Shown one piece after another: positions 5,156 through 31,092 of a stretch of 40,340 nucleotides of DNA. The notes beneath the pieces were generated by a model. It made no database searches. It had not been told where the DNA came from and saw nothing but the letters and a program-made list of their open reading frames with translations. Numbering within the stretch: position 1 is the stretch's first letter; each line of letters opens with the position of its first letter. The stretch comes from a virus, in the UHGV virus genome UHGV-0384112; one strand, 5' to 3'. A program made the position numbers and the translations under genes.

Positions 5156-6031
5156 ATGAAGTATATTCTTTGTCAGCCGGCAATCAATCGGTTTAAATGG
5201 GAGCTTGAAGTTTGTTTAACTAATCTGAAGAAACTAGGAATCAAAGATATCGTATTGCTTTTCAGCAGACACGATGATCAGATTCCTATTTTTTTTGAGA
5301 AGGAATATGGTGTTGAAGTTCATGTGTACGATGATCTGCGGGACGACAAAGAGTATATTCCTTCGATTAAACCATATTTATGGTGGAAATATTTAGAAGA
5401 AGATCATTCGCGTGAGGACGACCGATATTTCTATATCGATTCGGATGTCATTTTCAATAAAAGAATTAATTTGCGCAAATTGCCTTCTAAAGATGATGTT
5501 TGGTATTGTAGCGACTGCTGTAGTTATCTAAGTCTTGATTATATTAGAAGCTGTGAAAACGGAGAAAATATTCTAAAAGATATGGCAAACATTGTAAATG
5601 TTACAGTAGAATCTTTGGAAACTATAAACACTAATTCAGGAGGCGCACAGTGGGTTATTAACCGTCCTAAAGCGAATTATTGGAAAAAGGTTTATCTGGA
5701 TTCTAATCGGCTATATCGCTACCTTAGAGGGCAAAAAACAAATATACAAATCTGGACAGCCGAGATGTGGGCACAGCTTTGGAACATGATGTATTTCAAT
5801 ATTGGTCCTAAAGTTCACGAGGAATTAGACTTTTGTTTTGCTACTGATCCAATAGAAAAAGTTAAAGAAGTAAAAATCTTACACAATGCTGGAGTAACAA
5901 CAAACGATGAAGATTTATTTTTCAAAGGGAGATACGTGACTTCTACGCCTTTTGATGAAGATTTATCATTTGTAAACAAGAAAAAATGCTCTTACGCATA
6001 TGTTAAAGCAATTAAGGCGGTGGTTAGATGA
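5156..6031 (+). CDS. putative GT-A fold glycosyltransferase (GT8-like motifs) embedded in the head operon
   Basis: A hydrophobic strand followed by DxD (YFYIDSDVIF). About 60 aa later comes NSGGAQWVINR, which resembles the GT8 NsGv motif, then KILHNAG. RBS AGGTGA precedes ATG 5156. The stop overlaps the next gene start (ATGA), so it is co-translated with the structural genes. Confidence 0.45.
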   Translation: MKYILCQPAINRFKWELEVCLTNLKKLGIKDIVLLFSRHDDQIPIFFEKEYGVEVHVYDDLRDDKEYIPSIKPYLWWKYLEEDHSREDDRYFYIDSDVIFNKRINLRKLPSKDDVWYCSDCCSYLSLDYIRSCENGENILKDMANIVNVTVESLETINTNSGGAQWVINRPKANYWKKVYLDSNRLYRYLRGQKTNIQIWTAEMWAQLWNMMYFNIGPKVHEELDFCFATDPIEKVKEVKILHNAGVTTNDEDLFFKGRYVTSTPFDEDLSFVNKKKCSYAYVKAIKAVVR

Positions 6032-18423: not shown

Positions 18424-18644
18424 ATAATAAAACGTTCGAAGTACTAAAATGGTTCGCACTGGTAATTATTCCCGCACTAGCTACTTTCGTGGGGTTAGTT
18501 GGTAAAGCGCTCAATTGGCAGTACACAGATATCTGTGTTGTCATCATTACTGGTTTTGGCGCGTTTTTAGGGAGTGTGTTGGGTGTATCAAATCGAACCT
18601 ACAAAATGTTCTCGGCTGAAAGCGAAGAAGGAGGAAACAAATGA
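18420..18644 (+). CDS. holin (two TM segments)
   Basis: 74 aa with two hydrophobic helices and a charged C-terminus. Directly upstream of, and overlapping, the endolysin. Confidence 0.6.
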   Translation: MNNKTFEVLKWFALVIIPALATFVGLVGKALNWQYTDICVVIITGFGAFLGSVLGVSNRTYKMFSAESEEGGNK

Positions 18645-19666
18645 AAAAGAAAATTACTATTACTGCGATGAGCCTGTTAACGGCTCTTTTTTTATTACCC
18701 ATTAATACGTTTGCTTATACTATTAATGACGAGTATAATTTAGCGCCGAATCAAGGAGACTCCAGATTAGCAATTCCTAACAAAATTATTTTGCACGAAA
18801 CTGGAATAGATGCACCAGCAAGAAACGTAGCCGCCAACATGAAAAATAATTATAACGGAAGCAATTCTTATACTACAGATGTTATTGGTGACGGTGGGAT
18901 TGTTTACCGTGTGGGTGAGCAAGGATATGTTTCGTGGGGAGCTGGTAACGCTAATCCTTATGCGCCTGTACAGATTGAATTACAGCGCACATATGATAAA
19001 GCATTGTTTGAAAAAAACTATCGAGCTTATATTGAATATACAAGAGATAGTGCAAAAAAATATGGAATTCCATTGACTCTTGATCAAGGAACTTCTTTAT
19101 TTACAAAAGGAATCATTTCTCATTTGTGGGTGACAAATTATGTTTGGGGGAACCACACAGATCCATATGGTTACTTATCGCAAATGGGAGTTAGCAAAGA
19201 AAAGCTTGCTTATGATTTAGCTCATGGATTTACCGATGAAAATCCAACAACTTCTGAAAACAAGCCTGTCATTGATCCAACACGAGCTGGTGCAGCTAAT
19301 CCTACGCTGACAGATGGAACAAATCACGCCCACATTGATCAGTTTGGGGAAATCGAAAACGCAAACTTGCATGTGGCTGGATGGCACATTGCTAACTATA
19401 AATACGAGTATATTTTCATTATGGACTACAATACTGGGAAAGAATTAGCTCGAGTAAGAGCTGATGGAATTTATAGACCAGATGTAAACCAAGCTTATAA
19501 TACTTCTGGAAATGTTGGTTATCATGTATCTTTCAATATGCGTAATTTTCCTAGTAAGAAAGTCTATGTAATGATGCGGGCAACGAATGATCCAGAGGGA
19601 AACACTAAAGGCGGTGCGCAAGATTTCCATGACAAACGTTGGTATTTAAATATTCCTAAACGATAA
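18641..19666 (+). CDS. endolysin, Amidase_2-like N-acetylmuramoyl-L-alanine amidase with an N-terminal Sec-type signal peptide and a C-terminal wall-binding domain
   Basis: MKKKITITAMSLLTALFLLPINTFA|YT is a signal peptide. IILHETG…SYTTDVIGDGGIVYRVGEQGY…GNANPYAPVQIEL resembles amidase_2/PGRP. Last gene of the late operon. Confidence 0.65.
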   Translation: MKKKITITAMSLLTALFLLPINTFAYTINDEYNLAPNQGDSRLAIPNKIILHETGIDAPARNVAANMKNNYNGSNSYTTDVIGDGGIVYRVGEQGYVSWGAGNANPYAPVQIELQRTYDKALFEKNYRAYIEYTRDSAKKYGIPLTLDQGTSLFTKGIISHLWVTNYVWGNHTDPYGYLSQMGVSKEKLAYDLAHGFTDENPTTSENKPVIDPTRAGAANPTLTDGTNHAHIDQFGEIENANLHVAGWHIANYKYEYIFIMDYNTGKELARVRADGIYRPDVNQAYNTSGNVGYHVSFNMRNFPSKKVYVMMRATNDPEGNTKGGAQDFHDKRWYLNIPKR

Positions 19667-19855: not shown

Positions 19856-19929
19856 GTACCCTTAGCTCAGTTGGTCAGAGCAGACGGCTCATAACCGTCC
19901 GGTCGTAGGTTCGAGTCCTACAGGGTACA
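19856..19929 (+). tRNA. tRNA-Met (or Ile2) with anticodon CAT
   Basis: Cloverleaf folded by hand. Acceptor GTACCCT/AGGGTAC, D-arm GCTC-AGTTGGTCA-GAGC, anticodon arm GACGG-CTCATAA-CCGTC, T-arm GTAGG-TTCGAGT-CCTAC, discriminator A. No CCA is encoded. The G1-C72 pair means elongator type. Confidence 0.8.
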
Positions 19930-22691: not shown

Positions 22692-23099
22692 ATGTCTTAT
22701 AGAGTACAATTAATAATTTCAGAAGATGTAGAAAGTCAGCAATTTGGCACTAATGTTATTAATAAAGTAATTAATCCAGCTCTTTCTATTAATGCGCCTT
22801 TAATTCCTACTGCTTTATCATTTTCTGTAACAGCTGTGGTGTCTGAGATAGAGGATACAGAAAAGATAAAAATAGTAGAAATTGAAGTTTTAAACAAGAA
22901 TGAAAAACAAATTTTTTCTACGGGTGAAGTATCGGTAAGCTTGCCTCCTCAAGTTAACGATATAAACTTTAATATAAACGCCAGAAATGTCTTGGTTGAA
23001 GAAGCAGGAGAGCATTATGCTGTTGTTAAATTTAATGGAACTGAGATTGGAAGGCAAATCTTTGATATCAAGGTCAACAAACCAGTGGAAAAAAATTAA
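22692..23099 (+). CDS. hypothetical beta-rich protein (cassette gene 1)
   Basis: 135 aa with RBS AGGAG 7 nt before the ATG. First gene of the three-gene moron cassette. Confidence 0.5.
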   Translation: MSYRVQLIISEDVESQQFGTNVINKVINPALSINAPLIPTALSFSVTAVVSEIEDTEKIKIVEIEVLNKNEKQIFSTGEVSVSLPPQVNDINFNINARNVLVEEAGEHYAVVKFNGTEIGRQIFDIKVNKPVEKN

Positions 23100-23112
23100 G
23101 GAGACGATACGG

Positions 23113-23514
23113 ATGCTTGATATAGTACCATCAAATACACATCGGAGTGGTAGCTTAATAAATTTTGCTGCGATTTTTGCTTGCGCATCGGTAATTCTAG
23201 CATCTCCAGTTGTTGTGGATGCAAGTTCTACTCCGAAAACTAAAAATGATAATCAACTTGTAATTACTACAAAAAATGAGATTAACACAATTTCAAGTAA
23301 TGATGGCAAAATTTTTGATGTGATAAATACGGTTTTAAAAAGAAAAGCTGAAATCAATATAAAATATGATGAAGATTTAAACTTGTATTTCTTTGTTATC
23401 AAAACAACATCTGAATTGTTTTCCTCAGATTACGATGTTTTGGATACTCTCGATAATGTATTATCTGACTATAAATATATGGGGAAATCTGTAGTAGCAA
23501 CTTTGGGGGAATAA
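23113..23514 (+). CDS. hypothetical membrane-anchored protein (cassette gene 2)
   Basis: RBS AAGGAG before ATG 23113. One hydrophobic helix (LINFAAIFACASVILASPVVV) near the N-terminus. Confidence 0.5.
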   Translation: MLDIVPSNTHRSGSLINFAAIFACASVILASPVVVDASSTPKTKNDNQLVITTKNEINTISSNDGKIFDVINTVLKRKAEINIKYDEDLNLYFFVIKTTSELFSSDYDVLDTLDNVLSDYKYMGKSVVATLGE

Positions 23515-23515
23515 A

Positions 23516-23887
23516 ATGTTTGACTTTAATGAATATTTATCTATTTCCAAACAAATTGAATCAGATGATAAATATAATTCTAAAGAATCTTATAGAAGAA
23601 CTGCTGTTTCAAGAGCATACTACAGTGCTTTTAAAAAATCTGATGAGTATTTGAAAGAAAATTATGATATTATTTATAATGGAAGTAGCGGAAAAGGAAG
23701 CCACCAAACCGTTTGGAATTTGTTTTCAACAGTTAAGGAATTGAATACCTTAGGAATACATAATAGTGGGTATAGAATGTTAGAGAAAAGAAAATGTGCT
23801 GACTATATTCCTAATGAAACCATTACGAAAACAGATATGGCGCTGATGAATCGAGAAGCAGAAAAAATAATAAACAAACTCACCTAA
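23516..23887 (+). CDS. HEPN-like domain protein (cassette gene 3)
   Basis: The start is 2 nt after the upstream stop. Helix-1 motif RRTAVSRAYYSAFKK, a mid His (GSHQTVWNLF) and a C-terminal R-x4-Y (RKCADYIPNE) followed by an acidic helix resemble PF05168-type HEPN. Motif-level only. Confidence 0.4.
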   Translation: MFDFNEYLSISKQIESDDKYNSKESYRRTAVSRAYYSAFKKSDEYLKENYDIIYNGSSGKGSHQTVWNLFSTVKELNTLGIHNSGYRMLEKRKCADYIPNETITKTDMALMNREAEKIINKLT

Positions 23888-23922
23888 TGAATTTCAAGCG
23901 AGTTTGTTTGTTATTTTTTTAT

Positions 23923-24011
23923 TTAATCTTTGTATCTTTCTGGATCAACGAAAGTATACTTTATATAGTCATAACGCCGATGATCGCTACGTGCGTCCGG
24001 CACGTCAGTCA
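23923..24011. repeat. 89-bp direct repeat, copy 2
   Basis: See copy 1. Confidence 0.85.
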
Positions 24012-24225
24012 CGATATCAAACAAAAAGTATACACCCTTCTTCATTCTAGTTTTCGCAGCAGGAATTTTGAAATAGTTCTTATTAGAATAGTAGAGATTG
24101 ATTAATAAGCTATCTTCGATTGCTAAAAAGAAAACTTCTGAATTCCATACTTTATAAAAATCTTTGATAAATCTATTCGAAGGGTCAAATTTAAACCATA
24201 ATTGTGTTTTTCCTTCCATCAGCAT
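23923..24225 (-). CDS. hypothetical protein whose 3' end is duplicated at 20443..20531
   Basis: 100 aa with no recognisable motifs. It contains repeat copy 2. Confidence 0.5.
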   Translation of the reverse strand: MLMEGKTQLWFKFDPSNRFIKDFYKVWNSEVFFLAIEDSLLINLYYSNKNYFKIPAAKTRMKKGVYFLFDIVTDVPDARSDHRRYDYIKYTFVDPERYKD

Positions 24226-24311
24226 AAAAGTTCACCTCAAAAAGAGTATACGAACGAATGTTCTTTTTGTGAAGGCGGAATTTAATATACTGAATAATAG
24301 AAAACAAGTAC

Positions 24312-24508
24312 TTGTGCCAAATTATGTGCCAAAAAAATTCGAATTCAACAAAATGTAAACAAATAGAAAACCTTCTATATTAAGATTTCCTGCAATAACA
24401 AACACAACAGAAGACGTGTAATAGTTAGTCAGGAACGTATAAATAACCCCTGTATCCTTTGCGGTACAGGGGTTTGTTTTGTATTTGTGCCAAAAATGTG
24501 CCAAACTA
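24312..24508. repeat. four copies of TGTGCCAAA in two tandem pairs (24313-24334 and 24487-24508) flanking a hairpin; candidate arm-type integrase-binding sites / attP region
   Basis: Seen directly. Immediately 3' of the integrase gene, where attP usually lies. Confidence 0.4.
24449..24482 (+). terminator. rho-independent terminator (CCCCTGTA-tcctttgcgg-TACAGGGG + TTTGTTTT)
   Basis: Seen directly. It lies between the two TGTGCCAAA repeat pairs. Confidence 0.55.
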
Positions 24509-25675
24509 GTTATCATTTTTATATAAACTATCGAACACAGTATTGATTTTTTCTTTATCCTGATCTTCAAGCTCTCGAACAATATGAAGATAAGTAGACA
24601 TTGTAGTTTCTAAACTGCTATGTCCTAAACGTTTCGATACGCTAAGTATATTTACTCCTTGATAAAGTAAAATAGATGCATGTGTATGCCTTAGTCCATG
24701 CAAAGTAAATTGCTTTTCAATCCCTAATTCTTTTAATTTTTTGCGCAAATATTTGCTGACGGCGTTTGATGAAACTAATCCATTTTTTAAGTTGAAAAAA
24801 ACAAAATTATGAGGGTTTTTGATTTCAAAATTCTCGAATAATTCTTTTTGATTGATTTTAAACTTTTTTAAGAGATCAATCGTATGTTTATCAATGGAAA
24901 TTTTCCTATTTGAAGTTTCGTTTTTTGTTTTTCCCCATTCATTTAATTTATAATTCCATGTTTTATTAATAGTGATGATTTGATCTTCGAAATCGATATC
25001 TTCCCATGTTAATCCTAGAAGTTCAGCAAATCGCATTCCAGTGGCACCAGCAACTAACACGAGCATAGGAGAAGAGTACTGCGCAGAAAGGTTTTCTTCT
25101 ACGAGTTTCATTAAAGATTTAAATTGATCATAATCTAAATATTTATCTTCTTTTGGCTTCAATGAATCTTTTCCTTTGATTACTGCTTTTCTAGTTGGAT
25201 CAAACGGAATTAATCCTTCTTCTACGGCATCTTTCAACGACGCTCTAATATGGTTATTAAACTTAATAACGGTAGATTTTACATGGTCTTTAGCATACTT
25301 ATTTAAAAAGCGTTGATATCCCACTCTATCTAAATCAGAAATCAATACCGCTGGCATATATTTCTTTATGTTCATTAACGTATCTTCGTATTTTCTATAA
25401 GTGATAGGAGATACTGTTCCTTCTTTATAAAGTTGCATCCAATCCTCAAAGTAATCTGATAATAATAGATTTTTGCGATCCCCTTTAAGGCCTTTGTTCA
25501 AGTTATATTCTAATTCGTTGGCGGCATCTTTTGCTTCTCCTTTTGTCTTAAATCCTGATTTTCTTATCTTCGTGTATTTTCCGTCATCTTTTTTGTATGA
25601 AATTTCGTATTGCCAACTATTTCCACGTTTGACTAATCTTGCCATAATTGAATCAGCTCTCTTTCTCTGATACAA
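24506..25675 (-). CDS. int: tyrosine site-specific integrase
   Basis: 389 aa. The C-terminal catalytic region contains R…HGLRHTHASILL…LGHSSLETTMSTYLH (R-H-R-Y). Confidence 0.9.
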   Translation of the reverse strand: MYQRKRADSIMARLVKRGNSWQYEISYKKDDGKYTKIRKSGFKTKGEAKDAANELEYNLNKGLKGDRKNLLLSDYFEDWMQLYKEGTVSPITYRKYEDTLMNIKKYMPAVLISDLDRVGYQRFLNKYAKDHVKSTVIKFNNHIRASLKDAVEEGLIPFDPTRKAVIKGKDSLKPKEDKYLDYDQFKSLMKLVEENLSAQYSSPMLVLVAGATGMRFAELLGLTWEDIDFEDQIITINKTWNYKLNEWGKTKNETSNRKISIDKHTIDLLKKFKINQKELFENFEIKNPHNFVFFNLKNGLVSSNAVSKYLRKKLKELGIEKQFTLHGLRHTHASILLYQGVNILSVSKRLGHSSLETTMSTYLHIVRELEDQDKEKINTVFDSLYKNDN

Positions 25676-25719
25676 TAGGAACTATAAAGAAGCCCATTGT
25701 TTGGGTTTTATTATTTTTT

Positions 25720-25755
25720 GCACATCCTTTTTGCTTGCCGGCGCAAGGATGTGCT
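25720..25755. other. 10-bp perfect inverted repeat GCACATCCTT…AAGGATGTGC upstream of int
   Basis: Seen directly. Candidate terminator or operator. Confidence 0.35.
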
Positions 25756-25943
25756 ATTTGTCGTTTTAATGGTATAATTGGATGTGTATTAGATCATCCA
25801 ATCAGAGGTGTTTATTATGATTAAAGTGATTTTTAAAAGAATAACTGAACTTCCAGAGTTTAGATTATTTGTTGATTATTGGTATGTCTGGTTTTTTATT
25901 GTTGCATTGCTGATAGGTCTAGATGTCATATTAGAAAGAAAAC

Positions 25944-26579
25944 TTAAGTAAGAGTTGAGTTAATAAATTGAATTCCTAAATGAGATATTTTGTAGCCCAT
26001 ATTTTGTTTGCCGACATCACCTAATACTATGGAGCTAATCGTTTTTTCTAACAGACCAAAATCAGATAATCTATTTAAGCTACCATCTATTAGCTCTTGT
26101 GAATAGCCAGACATGCTGATATTTCCAGTGAAATTTTCGTTTCCACGACTCATTAAGCATGCTAACAATTGAATCTCAATCGATGTTAATTGATTCAGTA
26201 CAAGAAGATAATACTCCTCGTTATCCCATGAAGCGTTGTTAATTCGAAGTAAACAATTCTTATAAAGATTTTTATACATATCTATTTTATTTTGTGCCTT
26301 TGATTTTTCTACCTCGTCATTTATCCCTTCGAATATTCCAATGAGTTGGTCCTTGTTCTCTAAGTTGAAAACATCTTCTGGAATTTGATCGCGAATGTTT
26401 TCTAATGATTCGTTTAAATTTTTGTAGAATTTCTCGATGCGTTTGAAACGCTTCTCGTTTTTAGACCCAAAATAAAGTGACTGCACAACGCCACCAATAT
26501 AAGGAATTGCTCCAATACCGCCTTCAACTATTAATTCAAGATATTCTTTTTTGGTTAGTTTTTCATTGCTATTATCCAT
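25944..26579 (-). CDS. hypothetical protein (moron between int and repressor; candidate Abi or superinfection-exclusion protein)
   Basis: 211 aa, cytoplasmic-looking, with no recognisable motifs. Classic lysogenic-conversion locus. Confidence 0.5.
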   Translation of the reverse strand: MDNSNEKLTKKEYLELIVEGGIGAIPYIGGVVQSLYFGSKNEKRFKRIEKFYKNLNESLENIRDQIPEDVFNLENKDQLIGIFEGINDEVEKSKAQNKIDMYKNLYKNCLLRINNASWDNEEYYLLVLNQLTSIEIQLLACLMSRGNENFTGNISMSGYSQELIDGSLNRLSDFGLLEKTISSIVLGDVGKQNMGYKISHLGIQFINSTLT

Positions 26580-26691
26580 AGTTACCTCCTATTTTGTCAT
26601 TTCCTTTACAAGCATTGTGACTCCTGATGGCACTCTTTTGTATAGGTTTTATTATTGTGCACAATCTAACTCTTAGTGGGGCGTGGTTCAT

Positions 26692-27327
26692 TTATTTTTT
26701 ACTTACTTTACTATTAATCATATCCCATTGAGCATAGGATTTTTCTATGTTCGATCCTCTTGAACTAATTTCTCCTGTAAAAGTTACTTTATCGCCCTTT
26801 GTAAAGGTATCAGCATTGTTTAAGTCCTTCGCAAAAATTACATATGAAACTTTAGGTGTTGCAGAAATATCATTCCAACTTTTATCATCGTACTCTTTGT
26901 CTGCTATAATGGCTATTCTAGTAGTCATTGATTCGATAACAGTTCCTTCAAAAGTATATGTTTTACCACTAATATATTTAGTAAAAGCTGTATTTTGCTC
27001 AGTAGCTGGAGTAATAGAATAATAACTATCTAAGAAAGCACCCCAGTCATGATTATTTGTCTCTAAAAATTCTTCAAATTGAGTTAGGCTTTTATTGCTG
27101 CTGTTAGATGTAGTAGTTTGAGTATCAGATGATGAGCTTTCCTGTTTGTTATTGTCATTTGCCTCGTTTGATGAGGAAAGCGAGAAACCTACGGTAGTAA
27201 AAATAATCCCGATAATAAGGAGAATCATAGGTGTTTTCTTATTTGTTTTTTTGATAAATCTTACAATTAACATGATTAAACCTATAATAAATAAAACAAT
27301 ACCAGTAAAACCAAATATACCGTCCAT
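26692..27327 (-). CDS. membrane-anchored surface protein with a Ser/Thr-rich linker and an extracytoplasmic beta-domain (DUF4352-like?)
   Basis: N-terminal TM helices, a low-complexity S/T/N/Q linker and a C-terminal globular domain. Located between int and cI. Confidence 0.5.
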   Translation of the reverse strand: MDGIFGFTGIVLFIIGLIMLIVRFIKKTNKKTPMILLIIGIIFTTVGFSLSSSNEANDNNKQESSSSDTQTTTSNSSNKSLTQFEEFLETNNHDWGAFLDSYYSITPATEQNTAFTKYISGKTYTFEGTVIESMTTRIAIIADKEYDDKSWNDISATPKVSYVIFAKDLNNADTFTKGDKVTFTGEISSRGSNIEKSYAQWDMINSKVSKK

Positions 27328-27360
27328 TAATAGATCCTCTTTCTCTTTTGATATTGAATA

Positions 27361-27822
27361 TTATAAACCAAGCAATTCTTTTTTCTTAAAATCGAATTCT
27401 TCTTGATTAATAATCCCTTCATCTAACAACTCTTTATACTTTTTAATTTCATCTGCACTTGAAATTTGTGTTTCTTTGGAATTATTATCTAATATAGATT
27501 GTTGCTTCTCTATATATTTTTTTAAATTTTCCATTTCATTCCAATATTTTTTTGTAAACATAACGGTGTTTTCATCTTTCGTGGCCGCTAATATACCTCC
27601 GCGACTTTCGTTTCCGCCTAGCAAGGTAAATTGTATATAACCATTACTCATACCTGGTTTTTTTAATTGTACGGCTGATATATTTTTAAAGGGGATAGTT
27701 TTTTCTCCTTTAATACCTTGATTAACTAAATTTATAAATCCTTTTCTAATAATTGAAATAGAATCATCAGTTACTTTAATCAAGGTTTTTCCTGGAGATT
27801 TTATTAAAATCTCTTTTTCCAT
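27361..27822 (-). CDS. bacterial PH-like domain protein with a C-terminal SHOCT motif
   Basis: C-terminus SADEIKKYKELLDEGIINQEEFDFKKKELLGL matches the SHOCT pattern. The N-terminal half is beta-rich and PH-like. Confidence 0.5.
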   Translation of the reverse strand: MEKEILIKSPGKTLIKVTDDSISIIRKGFINLVNQGIKGEKTIPFKNISAVQLKKPGMSNGYIQFTLLGGNESRGGILAATKDENTVMFTKKYWNEMENLKKYIEKQQSILDNNSKETQISSADEIKKYKELLDEGIINQEEFDFKKKELLGL

Positions 27823-27884
27823 TTTTTCTTCCTCATTTCTGTGATATGATTTTTTTTGTAGAAGCTCATATATGAGGAAAGAGC

Positions 27885-27912
27885 CCGTGTTGCAGCACGG
27901 GCTTTTTTAATG
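27885..27912 (+). terminator. terminator hairpin GCCCGTG-ttgcag-CACGGGC + TTTTTTAA
   Basis: Seen directly. It separates the cI/ImmA unit from the moron cluster. Confidence 0.55.
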
Positions 27913-27951
27913 TTTTGCTGAAATCGGTTTTTTTAATAATTCTTGATGTAT

Positions 27952-28395
27952 TCATACATATTGCCTTGCGTAAGAATATTTTTTCTTAAAATAGCATTGG
28001 CAGACAGCATAACAAGTGTATCTGAGCTTATTCTGAATAGAATAATACTCCATAAATTTTTCGAGATTAAACTGAGATTCATCAGTCAGTTCGTTCTCAA
28101 TATAGATATTTAATAAAATTAGAATAGCTATTTTATCTGCTTCTGTTTCAAATTTTGAGTGAAAAGTTGTAGAAGTATCGTACAAAACTGAAAATTCAAA
28201 ATGAGAGGCGCTGAAATGTGCAAGTTCATGAGATAAATGAAAGGCTTCTGCAGTTTCACCGTATAGATTTTCATTCAAAAAAATGATTCTGGGTTTTGGA
28301 TAGTAGAAACCAGGCTCTTTCATCTCCATATAAACTACTTTCAAATTGTATTCGCTCAACATTTCTTTCAATTTCAAATACATACAAACCATCAC
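27952..28395 (-). CDS. ImmA/IrrE-family zinc metallopeptidase (anti-repressor protease)
   Basis: HEXXH motif (FHLSHELAHF) in a 147-aa protein directly downstream of, and co-oriented with, the XRE repressor. Confidence 0.7.
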   Translation of the reverse strand: MMVCMYLKLKEMLSEYNLKVVYMEMKEPGFYYPKPRIIFLNENLYGETAEAFHLSHELAHFSASHFEFSVLYDTSTTFHSKFETEADKIAILILLNIYIENELTDESQFNLEKFMEYYSIQNKLRYTCYAVCQCYFKKKYSYARQYV

Positions 28396-28400
28396 TCCAA

Positions 28401-28721
28401 CTATTCATTTTCCTCTAAAGCTTTAGCAATTGCAATCGCTTTACGCATTGTCTCCTTAGATATTTCTTTTCCATCAAAAGAAAAAACAGTATCGTCTTCT
28501 GATAAATCCACATGTTTAGGGGTTTCTCTTTCTTCTCTACCTAGAAGGTAGTCTACAGAGACATCGAAATAGTCAGCAATCCGACTTAATTCATCTGAAT
28601 TAGGAGTATTATTTTTCCACTTTGCTAGATAACCGTTAGAATATCCAAAATTAATTTCTAACTGCCGTATAGATATCTTTTTCCTCTTCGCCAAGTCTTT
28701 TATTATTTCATAGGTATTCAT
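28401..28721 (-). CDS. XRE-family HTH repressor (cI-like)
   Basis: N-terminal HTH (KRKKISIRQLEINFGYSNGYLAKWKNN). Divergent from the early lytic operon. Confidence 0.75.
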   Translation of the reverse strand: MNTYEIIKDLAKRKKISIRQLEINFGYSNGYLAKWKNNTPNSDELSRIADYFDVSVDYLLGREERETPKHVDLSEDDTVFSFDGKEISKETMRKAIAIAKALEENE

Positions 28722-28781
28722 CGATAAAACAACCTTTCTAAATGTTTACAAAAAAAGTTTAGAAAAATACGCAGAAATAAT

Positions 28782-28810
28782 TTGACTAATTCTGAGTAAT
28801 GAGCTATACT
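28782..28810 (+). promoter_or_regulatory. rightward early promoter TTGACT-N17-TATACT with operator half-site CTGAGTAAT in the spacer
   Basis: Seen directly. The same 19-mer, with 16 of 19 positions matching, recurs in inverted orientation at 28931-28959. Confidence 0.5.
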
Positions 28811-28930
28811 ATATCTTGTAAACAGATTTAACAACTAAAAAGACAACAAAAAACACTATTGATATGTAAATGCAGACCGCCAAGAAAGCTTTAAAATCAA
28901 TGTTTTTATGTCTTATTTAATTATGCTCTT

Positions 28931-28959
28931 AGTATAGAGTATTACTCAGATACTGTCAA
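28931..28959 (-). promoter_or_regulatory. leftward promoter TTGACA-N17-TATACT (minus strand) with the same operator sequence
   Basis: Reverse complement of 28931-28959 gives TTGACAgtatCTGAGTAATactcTATACT. Confidence 0.5.
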
Positions 28960-29019
28960 TTGAATTTAGAAAAAAGTTGTTAAATTTGTTTACGAATATA
29001 AAAGAAAGGAATGAGAAAT

Positions 29020-29796
29020 ATGAACACACCGCAAATTTTTAATTTCGAACAAAACGAAGTTCGGACAATTTTAGTAAATGATGAACCATATTTTGTAGGC
29101 AAAGACGTTGCGAGTGTTTTGGGTTATTCAAACACTAAAGATGCTTTGTCGCGGCATGTAGATTTGGAAGATAAGATGGGGTCGCGAATCACGACCTCAG
29201 GTCAATCAAGAGAGATGACAATCATCAACGAATCTGGTTTGTACAGTTTAATCTTAAAATCAAAACTTCCCTCTGCCAAAAAATTTAAACGTTGGGTAAC
29301 AAGTGAAGTGTTGCCAGCAATTAGAAAACATGGAGGTTATCTAACTCCAGAAAAAGTAGAAGAAGCTTTGCTTAATCCAGATACAATCATTCAATTAGCA
29401 ACTCAACTAAAAGAAGAAAGAACTGGAAGATTAATCGCAGAACAAAAGATTGCAGAGTACGAACCTAAAATCTCCTATTTAGATAGCATATTATCTTCTA
29501 CAGATTCAGTAACAATTAGTCAGATTGCAGCAGATTATGGGATGTCTCCACAACAGATGAATAAATTACTTCATAAACTAGGTATTCAGAAAAAAGTCGG
29601 TAACCAATGGTTATTGTGCAAAAAACACATGAACCAAGGATACACAAAATCTCATACAACTGAGATCCCGAAAGCCGATGGTGGCACTAAAATTGTAATG
29701 AATACCAAATGGACACAGAAAGGGCGTCTATTTATCTACGAATTACTAAAAAAAGAAGGATATTACCCTCAAATGGATTTAGAGGAAATTGGTTAG
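29020..29796 (+). CDS. ant: antirepressor (Bro-N domain plus KilA-C/ORF6C-like C-terminus)
   Basis: N-terminal Bro-N pattern (…VRTILVNDEPYFVGKDVASVLGY…SGLYSLILKSKLPSAKKFKRWVTSEVLP). ATG 29020 has the best-spaced RBS. The ORF track starts at 29011. Confidence 0.7.
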   Translation: MNTPQIFNFEQNEVRTILVNDEPYFVGKDVASVLGYSNTKDALSRHVDLEDKMGSRITTSGQSREMTIINESGLYSLILKSKLPSAKKFKRWVTSEVLPAIRKHGGYLTPEKVEEALLNPDTIIQLATQLKEERTGRLIAEQKIAEYEPKISYLDSILSSTDSVTISQIAADYGMSPQQMNKLLHKLGIQKKVGNQWLLCKKHMNQGYTKSHTTEIPKADGGTKIVMNTKWTQKGRLFIYELLKKEGYYPQMDLEEIG

Positions 29797-30576: not shown

Positions 30577-31092
30577 TCAGTTTAATTCTTTCACTAATTT
30601 CTCTATTGGGAAGTTTGTATTTTTGATATCAACAATTTTGTGGATTTGGGTTCTATTTAGAGTAAATATCATTTTTGTTTGGTGATTAAGGAGTTTATTA
30701 AAATTAATTTTCCCTACTTCAAATGCAAGGTAACAAGATATAGCACTTTTAGGAGGAATATTTAGCGGTACAGCTTCAGAGTATATTCTATTATCATCGA
30801 CTGATCCTCCTTTAGCAATTAATTTCTTAAATGGAGTAGCTGACCATCTGCGGTTTAAGTTAGCGGATGAAAGTTCTAAATTAACTAACATAGCTGGTTC
30901 TGTTGAATAGTTAGAAATGATTACTTTTGTATAAATCATATCTGCAGCGAAGTAAGAAGCATTAAGTTCAACTTCTAGTTGAGGGCGCATTCCTTTTATT
31001 TTTATCCCTGTTAAAAACGTACTCAATATAAAACTTATTATTGACATCCATTGAAAAATTGTTAAGTGAAAAAAATTCAAAATAAACACCAC
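30577..31092 (-). CDS. membrane-anchored protein encoded antisense to the early operon (moron). The start codon is uncertain: GTG at 31092 or internal Met.
   Basis: N-terminal hydrophobic helix followed by a beta-rich domain. On the minus strand there is a TATAAT box about 15 nt upstream, within 31107-31112. Confidence 0.45.
   Translation of the reverse strand: MVFILNFFHLTIFQWMSIISFILSTFLTGIKIKGMRPQLEVELNASYFAADMIYTKVIISNYSTEPAMLVNLELSSANLNRRWSATPFKKLIAKGGSVDDNRIYSEAVPLNIPPKSAISCYLAFEVGKINFNKLLNHQTKMIFTLNRTQIHKIVDIKNTNFPIEKLVKELN

Follow-up and report, generated by a model that had tools for sequence, protein, structure and literature searches.

Temperate phages of Gram-positive bacteria are well known to carry superinfection exclusion (Sie) and abortive infection (Abi) genes as cargo in their lysogeny modules. 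Among the described systems that most closely resemble the locus considered here, Sie2009 (orf2 of Lactococcus phage Tuc2009) is a membrane-associated protein that has been shown experimentally to block DNA injection (PMC7693887). Ltp, from Streptococcus thermophilus phage TP-J34, is a surface-exposed, lysogen-expressed exclusion lipoprotein that is likewise encoded in the lysogeny module. Abi-alpha (EF2833), from prophage 6 of Enterococcus faecalis V583, aborts infection by a Picovirinae phage via premature lysis, whose mechanism is unexplained (PMC6356687). In this report we compare with these systems a set of genes from UHGV virus genome UHGV-0384112, a stretch of 40,340 nucleotides (hereafter the window) that represents a circularly permuted temperate siphophage of the Enterococcus faecium type, approximately 40 kb in size, whose closest cultured relative is Enterococcus phage 4995_1. 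The interval between its integrase gene (int) and its ImmA gene is a lysogeny-module cargo (moron) slot of a very common E. faecium temperate siphophage.

In the window, this slot holds three independently mobile cassettes comprising four genes, and these do not constitute one system. By analogy with the systems named above, we favor, with some reserve, the reading that the cassettes most likely protect the lysogen against phages in separate layers. The surface-anchored product of one open reading frame (ORF-B) would block the DNA entry of superinfecting phages after adsorption. On infection, ORF-C and a small membrane peptide would disturb the membrane and mistime lysis, and thereby abort the infection, with the peptide as the effector at the membrane and ORF-C in a sensing or regulatory role. 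A third layer would be provided by ORF-A, a cytoplasmic and membrane-proximal protein to which we assign no action. The four genes, and the two segments that appear as recombination units when the window is aligned with related prophage loci (designated L002 and so forth), are as follows.

25817-25951, plus strand: gene for a 44-amino-acid (aa) peptide with a single transmembrane (TM) segment, the motif ELPEFRLFVDYWYVW and a basic tail; converges on ORF-C
25944-26579, minus strand: ORF-C, 211 aa, with an N-terminal glycine-rich motif (approximately residues 17-52), a helical bundle and a C-terminal winged helix; Shine-Dalgarno sequence present
26692-27327, minus strand: ORF-B, 211 aa, with two TM helices, a Ser/Thr linker and an extracytoplasmic domain of three helices plus an OB fold; Shine-Dalgarno sequence present
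27361-27822, minus strand: ORF-A, 153 aa, with a DUF4429 domain, a linker and a C-terminal SHOCT bi-helix; Shine-Dalgarno sequence present
25668-26589: ORF-C plus peptide cassette, one recombination unit, 89.4% identical to L002/L003
26676-27911, minus strand: ORF-A plus ORF-B cassette, one recombination unit, 95.5% identical to L010/L012

The independence of these cassettes is evident from the distribution of their genes among relatives. Cargo differs among loci whose int genes are 97-98% identical and whose slots share the left-edge hairpin. In phage 4995_1, for example, int is 98% identical and the cI-ImmA pair 84% identical, but the slot consists of one DUF4352 gene. The E. faecium prophages L010-L015 carry only ORF-A and ORF-B, and their int segment resumes 15 nt further without ORF-C. 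Conversely, L002-L004 carry a gene of the Ltp family (PF07553) followed by ORF-C, and lack ORF-A and ORF-B. Homology to the ORF-C plus peptide cassette extends from the ribosome binding site (RBS) of ORF-C to a point upstream of int, and in the window this cassette is joined to the ORF-A plus ORF-B cassette by 86 nt of unique sequence. The mosaic junctions thus fall at positions 27911, 26676, 26589 and 25668.

Each of ORF-A, relatives of ORF-B, and ORF-C is also found in the slot without the others. In the divergent prophage L126, genes for A and B are adjacent, and their products are 46% (A) and 24% (B) identical to the window proteins, values whose disparity suggests independent assortment. 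Several Enterococcus prophages (L017/L018/L020, at 5537-5851, and L031-L034) carry one 104-aa gene directly before int. This gene is shared by slots that hold a homolog of either A or B, which indicates that A and B are interchangeable in position.

The initial annotation of this region had described three minus-strand ORFs between int and the cI repressor gene, and all three were confirmed at the positions listed above, each with a Shine-Dalgarno sequence. Its assignment of the interval as a lysogeny-module cargo slot was also borne out, since close relatives with the same int hold other cargo. Other aspects require revision. The annotation overlooked the fourth gene, which encodes the 44-aa plus-strand peptide overlapping the 3' end of ORF-C, and its term "three-gene cluster" does not hold in the sense of one system because each gene occurs without the others.

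The closest architectural match to a characterized exclusion protein is provided by ORF-B. An AlphaFold (AF2) model built on 48 diverse relatives has a pLDDT of 85 overall and above 95 for residues 80-211. It predicts TM helices at residues 4-26 and 33-49 (N-terminal hydropathy peak of 2.9), a disordered Ser/Thr linker at residues 50-73 and, after this linker, three helices followed by a beta-barrel. Between the two TM helices, the loop RFIKKTNKK is positively charged, which implies that the C-terminal domain lies outside the cell. Thus, the membrane anchor, the Ser/Thr-rich stalk and the external beta-domain that had been proposed from the sequence are all supported by the model, but the anchor comprises two TM helices rather than one. 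Foldseek comparisons identify the barrel as an OB fold, with the best small-protein matches being the tRNA_anti-like lipoprotein 3f1z and the DUF3221 protein YobA (4qy7), and with further matches to the anticodon-binding (OB) domains of Lys- and Asp-tRNA synthetases. ORF-B matches phrog_19175 at 1e-49 and the "Sie-like" family phrog_8545 at 8e-6 over residues 25-186, and two superinfection-exclusion PHROGs are matched by 9/48 (phrog_8545) and 5/48 members of the ORF-B family. Relatives of ORF-B also occur as sole occupants of the repressor-int slot.

These features resemble those of Sie2009, whose gene lies between int and the repressor module in the same orientation as these genes, and whose product is likewise small, with an N-terminal TM anchor, a Ser/Thr-rich linker and an extracytoplasmic OB fold. 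The two proteins differ in that Sie2009 has one TM helix where ORF-B has two, in that ORF-B carries an additional three-helix segment before the barrel, and in that Sie2009 matches PF12869 (tRNA_anti-like) at 43.3 bits whereas ORF-B falls under the threshold; the host genus also differs. A resemblance to both Sie and Ltp proteins had been suggested, and the Ltp part of this comparison does not stand. ORF-B has no N-terminal cysteine or lipobox and no PF07553 match, and its OB barrel is unlike the helical repeat of Ltp, whose connection to this slot is instead that in a sister prophage, L002, ORF-C is preceded by an Ltp-family gene. By analogy, ORF-B probably works like Sie2009 by blocking DNA entry after adsorption. 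The papers retrieved describe no Sie2009-like DNA-entry blocker from enterococci.

ORF-C had been described as a cytoplasmic protein with no motif. Alignment of its family reveals a near-invariant, glycine-rich N-terminal motif (E-x-G-I-G-x-I-P-x-[VI]-G-x3-Q-x2-Y-F-G-x2-N-E-K-R-F-K-R-[IV]-E-x-F-Y), with 17 of the 23 invariant columns falling within residues 8-52. The AF2 model of ORF-C (pLDDT 76, with values of 38-47 across the N-terminal motif region) includes a confident C-terminal winged helix, which resembles those of Lrs14/AbfR2, PadR and MarR regulators, all matches to winged helix-turn-helix (wHTH) folds. The family is small, with 41 matches mainly from Enterococcus and Carnobacterium, and it occurs in only five GTDB species representatives, namely a Lactococcus metagenome-assembled genome (MAG), Lactiplantibacillus, Latilactobacillus, Oceanobacillus and Trichococcus. 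Its members have been seen at prophage ends, in a phage replication module and in an integrative element on a Pediococcus plasmid.

Searches with ORF-C returned no Pfam or PHROG match and no significant PADLOC match. Nevertheless, 16 of 32 ORF-C family members match PF14337 (Abi_alpha) below threshold and in one register, with the best at 27.4 bits against a cut-off of 29, and the UniRef label for the exact ORF-C sequence is "DUF4393 domain-containing protein". Like ORF-C, Abi-alpha is prophage-borne in enterococci. It differs from ORF-C in length (272 aa versus 211 aa), and the glycine-rich N-terminal motif and the C-terminal winged helix are ORF-C's own. Furthermore, the convergent membrane peptide that is often found beside ORF-C is not described for Abi-alpha (PMC6356687).

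Several proteins were considered as Abi_alpha references and set aside. The gp03 protein of phage phiNM1 has no Pfam match and no similarity to ORF-C, and is not the DUF4393 protein of the phiNM1 preprint cited below. Similarly, EH-TP1 gp36 and ORFs of IME197 are 26-27% identical to ORF-C, but Pfam does not classify them as Abi_alpha. Because this left no bona fide Abi_alpha protein for profile comparison, the link between ORF-C and Abi-alpha stays sub-threshold. At the level of sequence, then, ORF-C is a sub-threshold relative of enterococcal Abi-alpha, and the earlier suggestion that the cluster includes an Abi candidate gains support.

The peptide gene encodes MIKVIFKRITELPEFRLFVDYWYVWFFIVALLIGLDVILERKLK and overlaps the 3' end of ORF-C by 8 nt. 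E. faecium annotations list its product as hypothetical. Members of the peptide family have invariant L12, Y21, W22 and W25 residues, followed by the TM segment and a charged tail. A homologous peptide is encoded in convergent and overlapping orientation beside relatives of ORF-C that share between 29% and 100% identity, and the coding overlap ranges from 8 to 60 nt across lineages. In total, the peptide is paired with ORF-C in 7 of 13 ORF-C lineages. Some of these pairs are proximal to int (the window type, the L056/L091 Lactiplantibacillus type and the L060 type), others are proximal to the lysin gene (L005/L050/L090 and the Carnobacterium loci L040/51/52/63), and one resides on the plasmid-borne integrative element of Pediococcus (L176). 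No peptide was found in any of seven control loci that lack ORF-C.

Two explanations for this pairing were rejected. The peptide is not a chance ORF or an artefact of the overlap, since most of its gene lies outside ORF-C and its conservation at the protein level extends to about 25% identity. Nor does the pairing merely reflect a shared position after the lysin gene, as the pair is located beside int in four lineages (the window, L056/L091, L060 and L176).

Three sequence elements precede the peptide gene, as listed here.

25720-25754: inverted repeat with a perfect 10-bp stem, GCACATCCTT-N15-AAGGATGTGC; a T-rich run follows on the plus strand
25770-25778, plus strand: extended -10 promoter-like element, TGGTATAAT, 39 nt 5' of the peptide ATG
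25778-25801: inverted repeat in the 5' untranslated region (UTR) of the peptide gene, followed by the RBS AGAGG at 25804-25808, as read from the sequence

Other int-proximal lineages (L002, L060/61/64 and L056) likewise have the promoter-like sequence TGnTATAAT 5' of the peptide gene, and from its sequence and placement we infer that the element at 25770-25778 is a putative peptide promoter. The inverted repeat at 25720-25754 lies just 5' of this element. L002 has an identical stem but a different loop, and the repeat could be either a terminator-like structure or an operator.

Considered together, ORF-C and the peptide might form an undescribed two-component Abi module, in which a peptide effector derived from a lysis cassette would be coupled to an Abi-alpha-like winged-helix sensor or regulator. 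This is a tentative proposal, and we assign it a low probability. Under such an arrangement, ORF-C could control the peptide by protein contact via its glycine-rich N terminus, by binding to the promoter, or through antisense transcription across the 3' overlap. No description of an ORF-C plus peptide module was found in the literature examined, which did not include a search aimed at the peptide itself. If the proposal is correct, the module would offer a mechanistic handle on the unexplained premature lysis caused by the Abi-alpha family.

A working analogy for such a module is the RexA/RexB system of phage lambda, a lysogen-expressed pair encoded beside the repressor gene in which a cytoplasmic sensor acts with a membrane component that collapses the membrane potential. 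RexB has four TM helices and is encoded co-directionally with RexA, whereas the peptide has only one TM segment and is encoded convergently with ORF-C. No sequence or fold relation between the two pairs turned up, though no test was aimed at finding one.

A different comparison is offered by type I toxin-antitoxin (TA) loci, such as par/Fst of E. faecalis plasmid pAD1 and the bsrG/SR4 and txpA/RatA loci of Bacillus subtilis prophages, in which a small hydrophobic peptide (under 60 aa) with a charged tail is encoded on a mobile element with a convergent, overlapping partner. The peptide described here shares the size, hydrophobicity, charged tail, convergent 3' overlap and mobile-element location of these toxins. 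Its convergent partner, however, is a gene for a 211-aa protein and not a small RNA, and an Rfam search at the locus returned no known antitoxin RNA.

The remaining gene, ORF-A, belongs to the most widespread family of occupants of this slot. Its product exceeds the Pfam gathering cut-offs for DUF4429 (PF14472; 39.6 bits, 8e-10, cut-off 25) and SHOCT (PF09851; 33.2 bits, 4e-8, cut-off 27), and both domains are matched in all 48 ORF-A relatives scanned. No TM segment is present, the maximum hydropathy being 0.63. The earlier description of ORF-A as a PH-like protein with a SHOCT motif is therefore firm with respect to SHOCT, to which DUF4429 is now added, while the PH-like part receives weaker backing. 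Weak matches to bPH_5, bPH_3 and PH_30 were obtained for 4 of 48 family members (3 of 48 for bPH), and some phage records label homologs as "PH domain-containing protein". In addition, we take DUF4429 to be a member of the Pfam PH clan.

The ORF-A family yielded 379 protein-search matches and at least 291 in IMG/VR, and relatives are encoded by 63 cultured phages, among them 27 Staphylococcus and 17 Streptococcus phages. The gene order cI-ImmA-A followed eventually by int recurs from Enterococcus to S. aureus phage phiMR25, where the order is regulator, metalloprotease, orf3 (the ORF-A homolog), orf2 and int. A homolog of 64% identity stands alone between ImmA and a tyrosine or serine recombinase gene. 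Among 71 near-full-length IMG/VR loci, an XRE-type HTH gene is located upstream in at least 35, ImmA upstream in at least 14 and a same-strand recombinase gene downstream in at least 24, with these counts being lower bounds due to the small reference set. The family is thus a widespread, uncharacterized occupant of the slot between repressor or ImmA and recombinase in phages of Firmicutes.

Homologs are also found in other settings. One adjoins an Abi_2 gene in Carnobacterium, another resides on a Lacticaseibacillus chromosome, in surroundings free of phage genes, and in a Bacillaceae mobile element with FtsK/SpoIIIE nearby (L025, 3795-4465) the start of the homolog overlaps a 69-aa HTH_3 gene by 4 nt. 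This last pair lies near SIR2_2, YolD and WYL genes, and its layout is typical of defense or toxin-antitoxin-like pairs.

SHOCT domains are predicted to tether other domains to the inner leaflet of the membrane (PMC11237479), and bacterial PH (bPH) domain proteins form oligomeric rings according to the account of Xu et al. (2010) given in PMC3581485. ORF-A combines a PH-like domain with a short C-terminal bi-helix, although its DUF4429 domain constitutes a Pfam family separate from those of bPH proteins. By this analogy, ORF-A may form an oligomer in the cytoplasm close to the membrane and be expressed together with the immunity genes, and it is probably another lysogen-expressed exclusion or Abi factor.

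Whether the cargo is expressed in the lysogen depends in part on the borders of the slot, which are defined by the following features.

24506-25675, minus strand: tyrosine integrase gene (PF00589, 2e-32), the right edge of the slot; likely start ATG at 25645
27877-27908: conserved GC-rich hairpin directly after ImmA, the left edge of the slot
27952-28395, minus strand: ImmA/IrrE metalloprotease gene (Peptidase_M78), between the cargo and cI
28401-28721, minus strand: cI-type HTH repressor gene (HTH_3, phrog_87)
28959-28931, minus strand: sigma-70-like promoter match, TTGACA-17-TATACT, 11/12 positions, the best within the scanned region 24300-29200

The integrase shares 98% identity with that of phage 4995_1 (379 aa). 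The cI and ImmA genes (27952-28721, minus strand) constitute a neighboring immunity operon that lies outside the cargo, and although the cargo had been correctly located between int and cI, the intervening ImmA/IrrE gene had gone unmentioned. The hairpin is kept after differing ImmA genes and before differing cargo (L001 and L010-L015).

It had been argued that a terminator separating the cargo from cI implied expression in the lysogen, but this argument fails because the U-run of the hairpin is on the other strand. Reading along the plus strand gives the form of a canonical terminator, with a U6 tail and a predicted stability of -26.3 kcal/mol. On the gene-sense strand, the corresponding value is -16.5 kcal/mol, and the 8-bp stem is followed by the tail CUCUUUCC. 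We therefore rejected the idea that this hairpin insulates the cargo by terminating transcription. With its U-run on the opposite strand, it should be a poor insulator for transcripts originating at the promoter-like site of cI, and read-through from cI-ImmA into the cargo is plausible on the basis of the sequence. From this U-less hairpin, the co-orientation of the cargo with cI and the peptide's own putative promoter, we infer that the cargo is expressed in the lysogen. An analogy is the staphylococcal phage phiNM1, in whose lysogens almost all genes co-oriented with cI have been detected as protein (bioRxiv 10.1101/2025.10.23.684294), and the same might hold for this slot.

Other features of the hairpin region were also noted. 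A perfect 12-bp palindrome, CTCATATATGAG, is located on the minus strand at 27862-27873, directly after the hairpin and 5' of ORF-A. Its arms are retained as CTCA/TGAG in phage 4995_1, and it may be an operator. Any plus-strand transcript ended by the hairpin (27792-27911) would run antisense to the beginning of ORF-A. Rfam comparisons of this segment gave chance-level matches to small antisense or toxic RNAs (E 0.04-0.8), and a permissive Rfam search of 23800-29100 gave only chance-level matches caused by the hairpin.

Several results weigh against the reading of the slot as separate anti-phage layers. A search of PADLOC-DB v2 with the three proteins and the ORF-C family gave best E values of only 3e-4 to 4e-3, to unrelated models and inconsistently, which agrees with the initial annotation in finding no confident match to a named system. 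For ORF-B, the comparison of its family with Sie2009 by hhalign is weak (E 9e-4, probability 23%), and the protein falls below the Pfam thresholds for PF12869 and DUF3221; PF12869 was matched in 1 of 48 relatives (4e-4) and not in ORF-B. The window's ORF-C does not match PF14337 even at E<=1, and the family matches reach only approximately positions 6-101 of the 196-position model, its first half. Moreover, the structure cited by the Abi-alpha paper, Protein Data Bank (PDB) entry 3H35, is absent from the top 50 Foldseek matches of ORF-C.

With regard to the peptide, 6 of 13 ORF-C lineages have no adjacent copy, and in Lactococcus phage BK5-T and at least 10 related IMG/VR contigs the peptide gene lies directly behind the endolysin gene with no ORF-C nearby, so that the pairing is frequent but not obligatory. 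Our literature search found no mention of DUF4429 or PF14472, and a defense role for ORF-A consequently rests on context. Finally, there is no convincing sigma-70 promoter 5' of ORF-A, and the region has no excess of promoter-like sites, with 19 present versus 24.8 expected from shuffled sequences. In addition to these points, an NCBIfam scan gave no matches, and the family profiles of ORF-A, ORF-B and ORF-C found no relatives by sequence in PDB.

Other explanations for these genes have to be considered beside this reading. One is that the three or four genes form a single multicomponent defense system whose members act jointly. The genes are indeed co-oriented and closely spaced (33 and 112 nt between the three ORFs), identical sequences co-occur in many E. 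faecium genomes (L046-49 and L095-98), and A and B are neighbors even in the divergent prophage L126. Yet the unequal identities of A and B in L126 suggest independent assortment, A alone and B alone occur in the slot, the A and B pair occurs without ORF-C and with the int segment only 15 nt away, and ORF-C occurs without A or B beside an Ltp gene, a lysin gene or a replication gene. The distribution of the genes among relatives led us to reject a single three-gene system, and we regard joint action as highly improbable.

More specific to ORF-C and the peptide is the possibility that they constitute a TA-like addiction module or the phage's own lysis-timing module. In this case, a type-I-like hydrophobic toxin would be held in check by the convergent ORF-C transcript or protein, and would stabilize the prophage or tune its own lysis. 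Consistent with this, the peptide is small, with one TM segment and a basic tail as in type I toxins, the genes converge with overlapping 3' ends, the peptide gene has an apparently strong promoter and a structured 5' UTR, and in lactococcal phages it is the last gene of the lysis cassette. Such a role is at odds with the retention of the ORF-C motif in six lineages that lack the peptide, with the Abi_alpha similarity of ORF-C and with the location of the pair among other exclusion genes, and we regard it as doubtful. The Abi and TA readings of this pair are compatible, since many Abi systems are toxin-antitoxin-like.

For ORF-B, the alternative is a surface protein involved in lysogenic conversion, through which the bacterium would deal with its environment or host (adhesion, envelope stress or immune exposure), rather than in phage exclusion. 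The OB fold is generic, no function is known for the nearest structures (3f1z and YobA), a DUF4352 surface protein is encoded in the corresponding slot of phage 4995_1, and the prophage is widespread in E. faecium assemblies. We nonetheless find a conversion role unlikely, given that the position, size, anchor, linker and fold of ORF-B match those of the experimentally characterized Sie2009 (PMC7693887), that its family repeatedly matches PHROG "Sie" families, and that a sister prophage carries a gene of a known Sie family, Ltp, between ImmA and ORF-C.

ORF-A could instead be an accessory of the cI-ImmA switch, for instance a membrane-linked adaptor that modulates ImmA-dependent cleavage of the repressor, or a helper of integration or excision. 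Its gene follows ImmA or an XRE-type HTH gene directly and precedes a recombinase gene in many unrelated phages, there is a 4-nt overlap between its start and an HTH_3 gene in the Bacillaceae element, and it may share the cI-ImmA transcript because the preceding hairpin is U-less in the sense of the gene. However, ORF-A is missing from many prophages whose cI-ImmA pair is of the same kind (4995_1, L002, L035 and L036), and homologs are also found on a chromosome without phage genes and beside Abi_2 and SIR2_2; we regard an accessory role as unlikely. The reading of the slot as a set of separate exclusion or Abi layers is the one we retain, at the strength given at the outset.

A number of other loci were noted in the window and its relatives. 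A second block of cargo (22692-23887, plus strand) lies between the lysis genes and the attachment site and int, and comprises the following genes.

22692-23099, plus strand: DUF6941 protein (phrog_5881)
22987-23514, plus strand: ORF of unassigned function
23516-23887, plus strand: 123-aa protein (phrog_5176), with a weak HEPN_IX match in PADLOC (E 0.006)

Phage 4995_1 carries the same three genes, annotated as hypothetical. Among the plus-strand early genes of the window, a minus-strand ORF at 30577-31092 encodes a 171-aa protein with a hydrophobic N terminus, which may be another lysogen-expressed membrane protein. A 221-aa hypothetical gene occupies the same place and orientation in phage 4995_1. 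A tRNA-Met (CAT) gene (19856-19929, plus strand) is located just 3' of the ORF at 18641-19666, which presumably encodes the endolysin. ORF30 of phage BK5-T (L045, 3693-5309; 538 aa) lies between the lysis cassette and int, immediately beyond the terminator annotated for the peptide gene. It has its own annotated promoter and SIR2-like motifs that are discernible by eye, and is possibly another defense cargo gene.

Although Sie and Abi cargo in the lysogeny modules of temperate phages from Gram-positive hosts is a well-known kind of locus, the putative ORF-C plus peptide module is the one feature without a counterpart in the papers retrieved, and ORF-B adds a new, member-like example to the Sie2009 architecture. 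The exact sequences of ORF-A, ORF-B, ORF-C and the peptide are each present on at least 1000 public E. faecium contigs, and this species is a major hospital pathogen and a target for phage therapy. If these genes do exclude phages, they would shape which therapeutic phages work. ORF-B, if our reading is correct, would represent a Sie2009-like DNA-entry blocker in enterococci, and the mistimed lysis caused by Abi-alpha-type proteins could find an explanation in ORF-C together with the peptide. ORF-A stands for an uncharacterized protein family encoded in lysogeny modules of phages from Enterococcus, Staphylococcus, Streptococcus and Lactobacillus. The locus therefore yields three separately testable and clinically relevant candidates.

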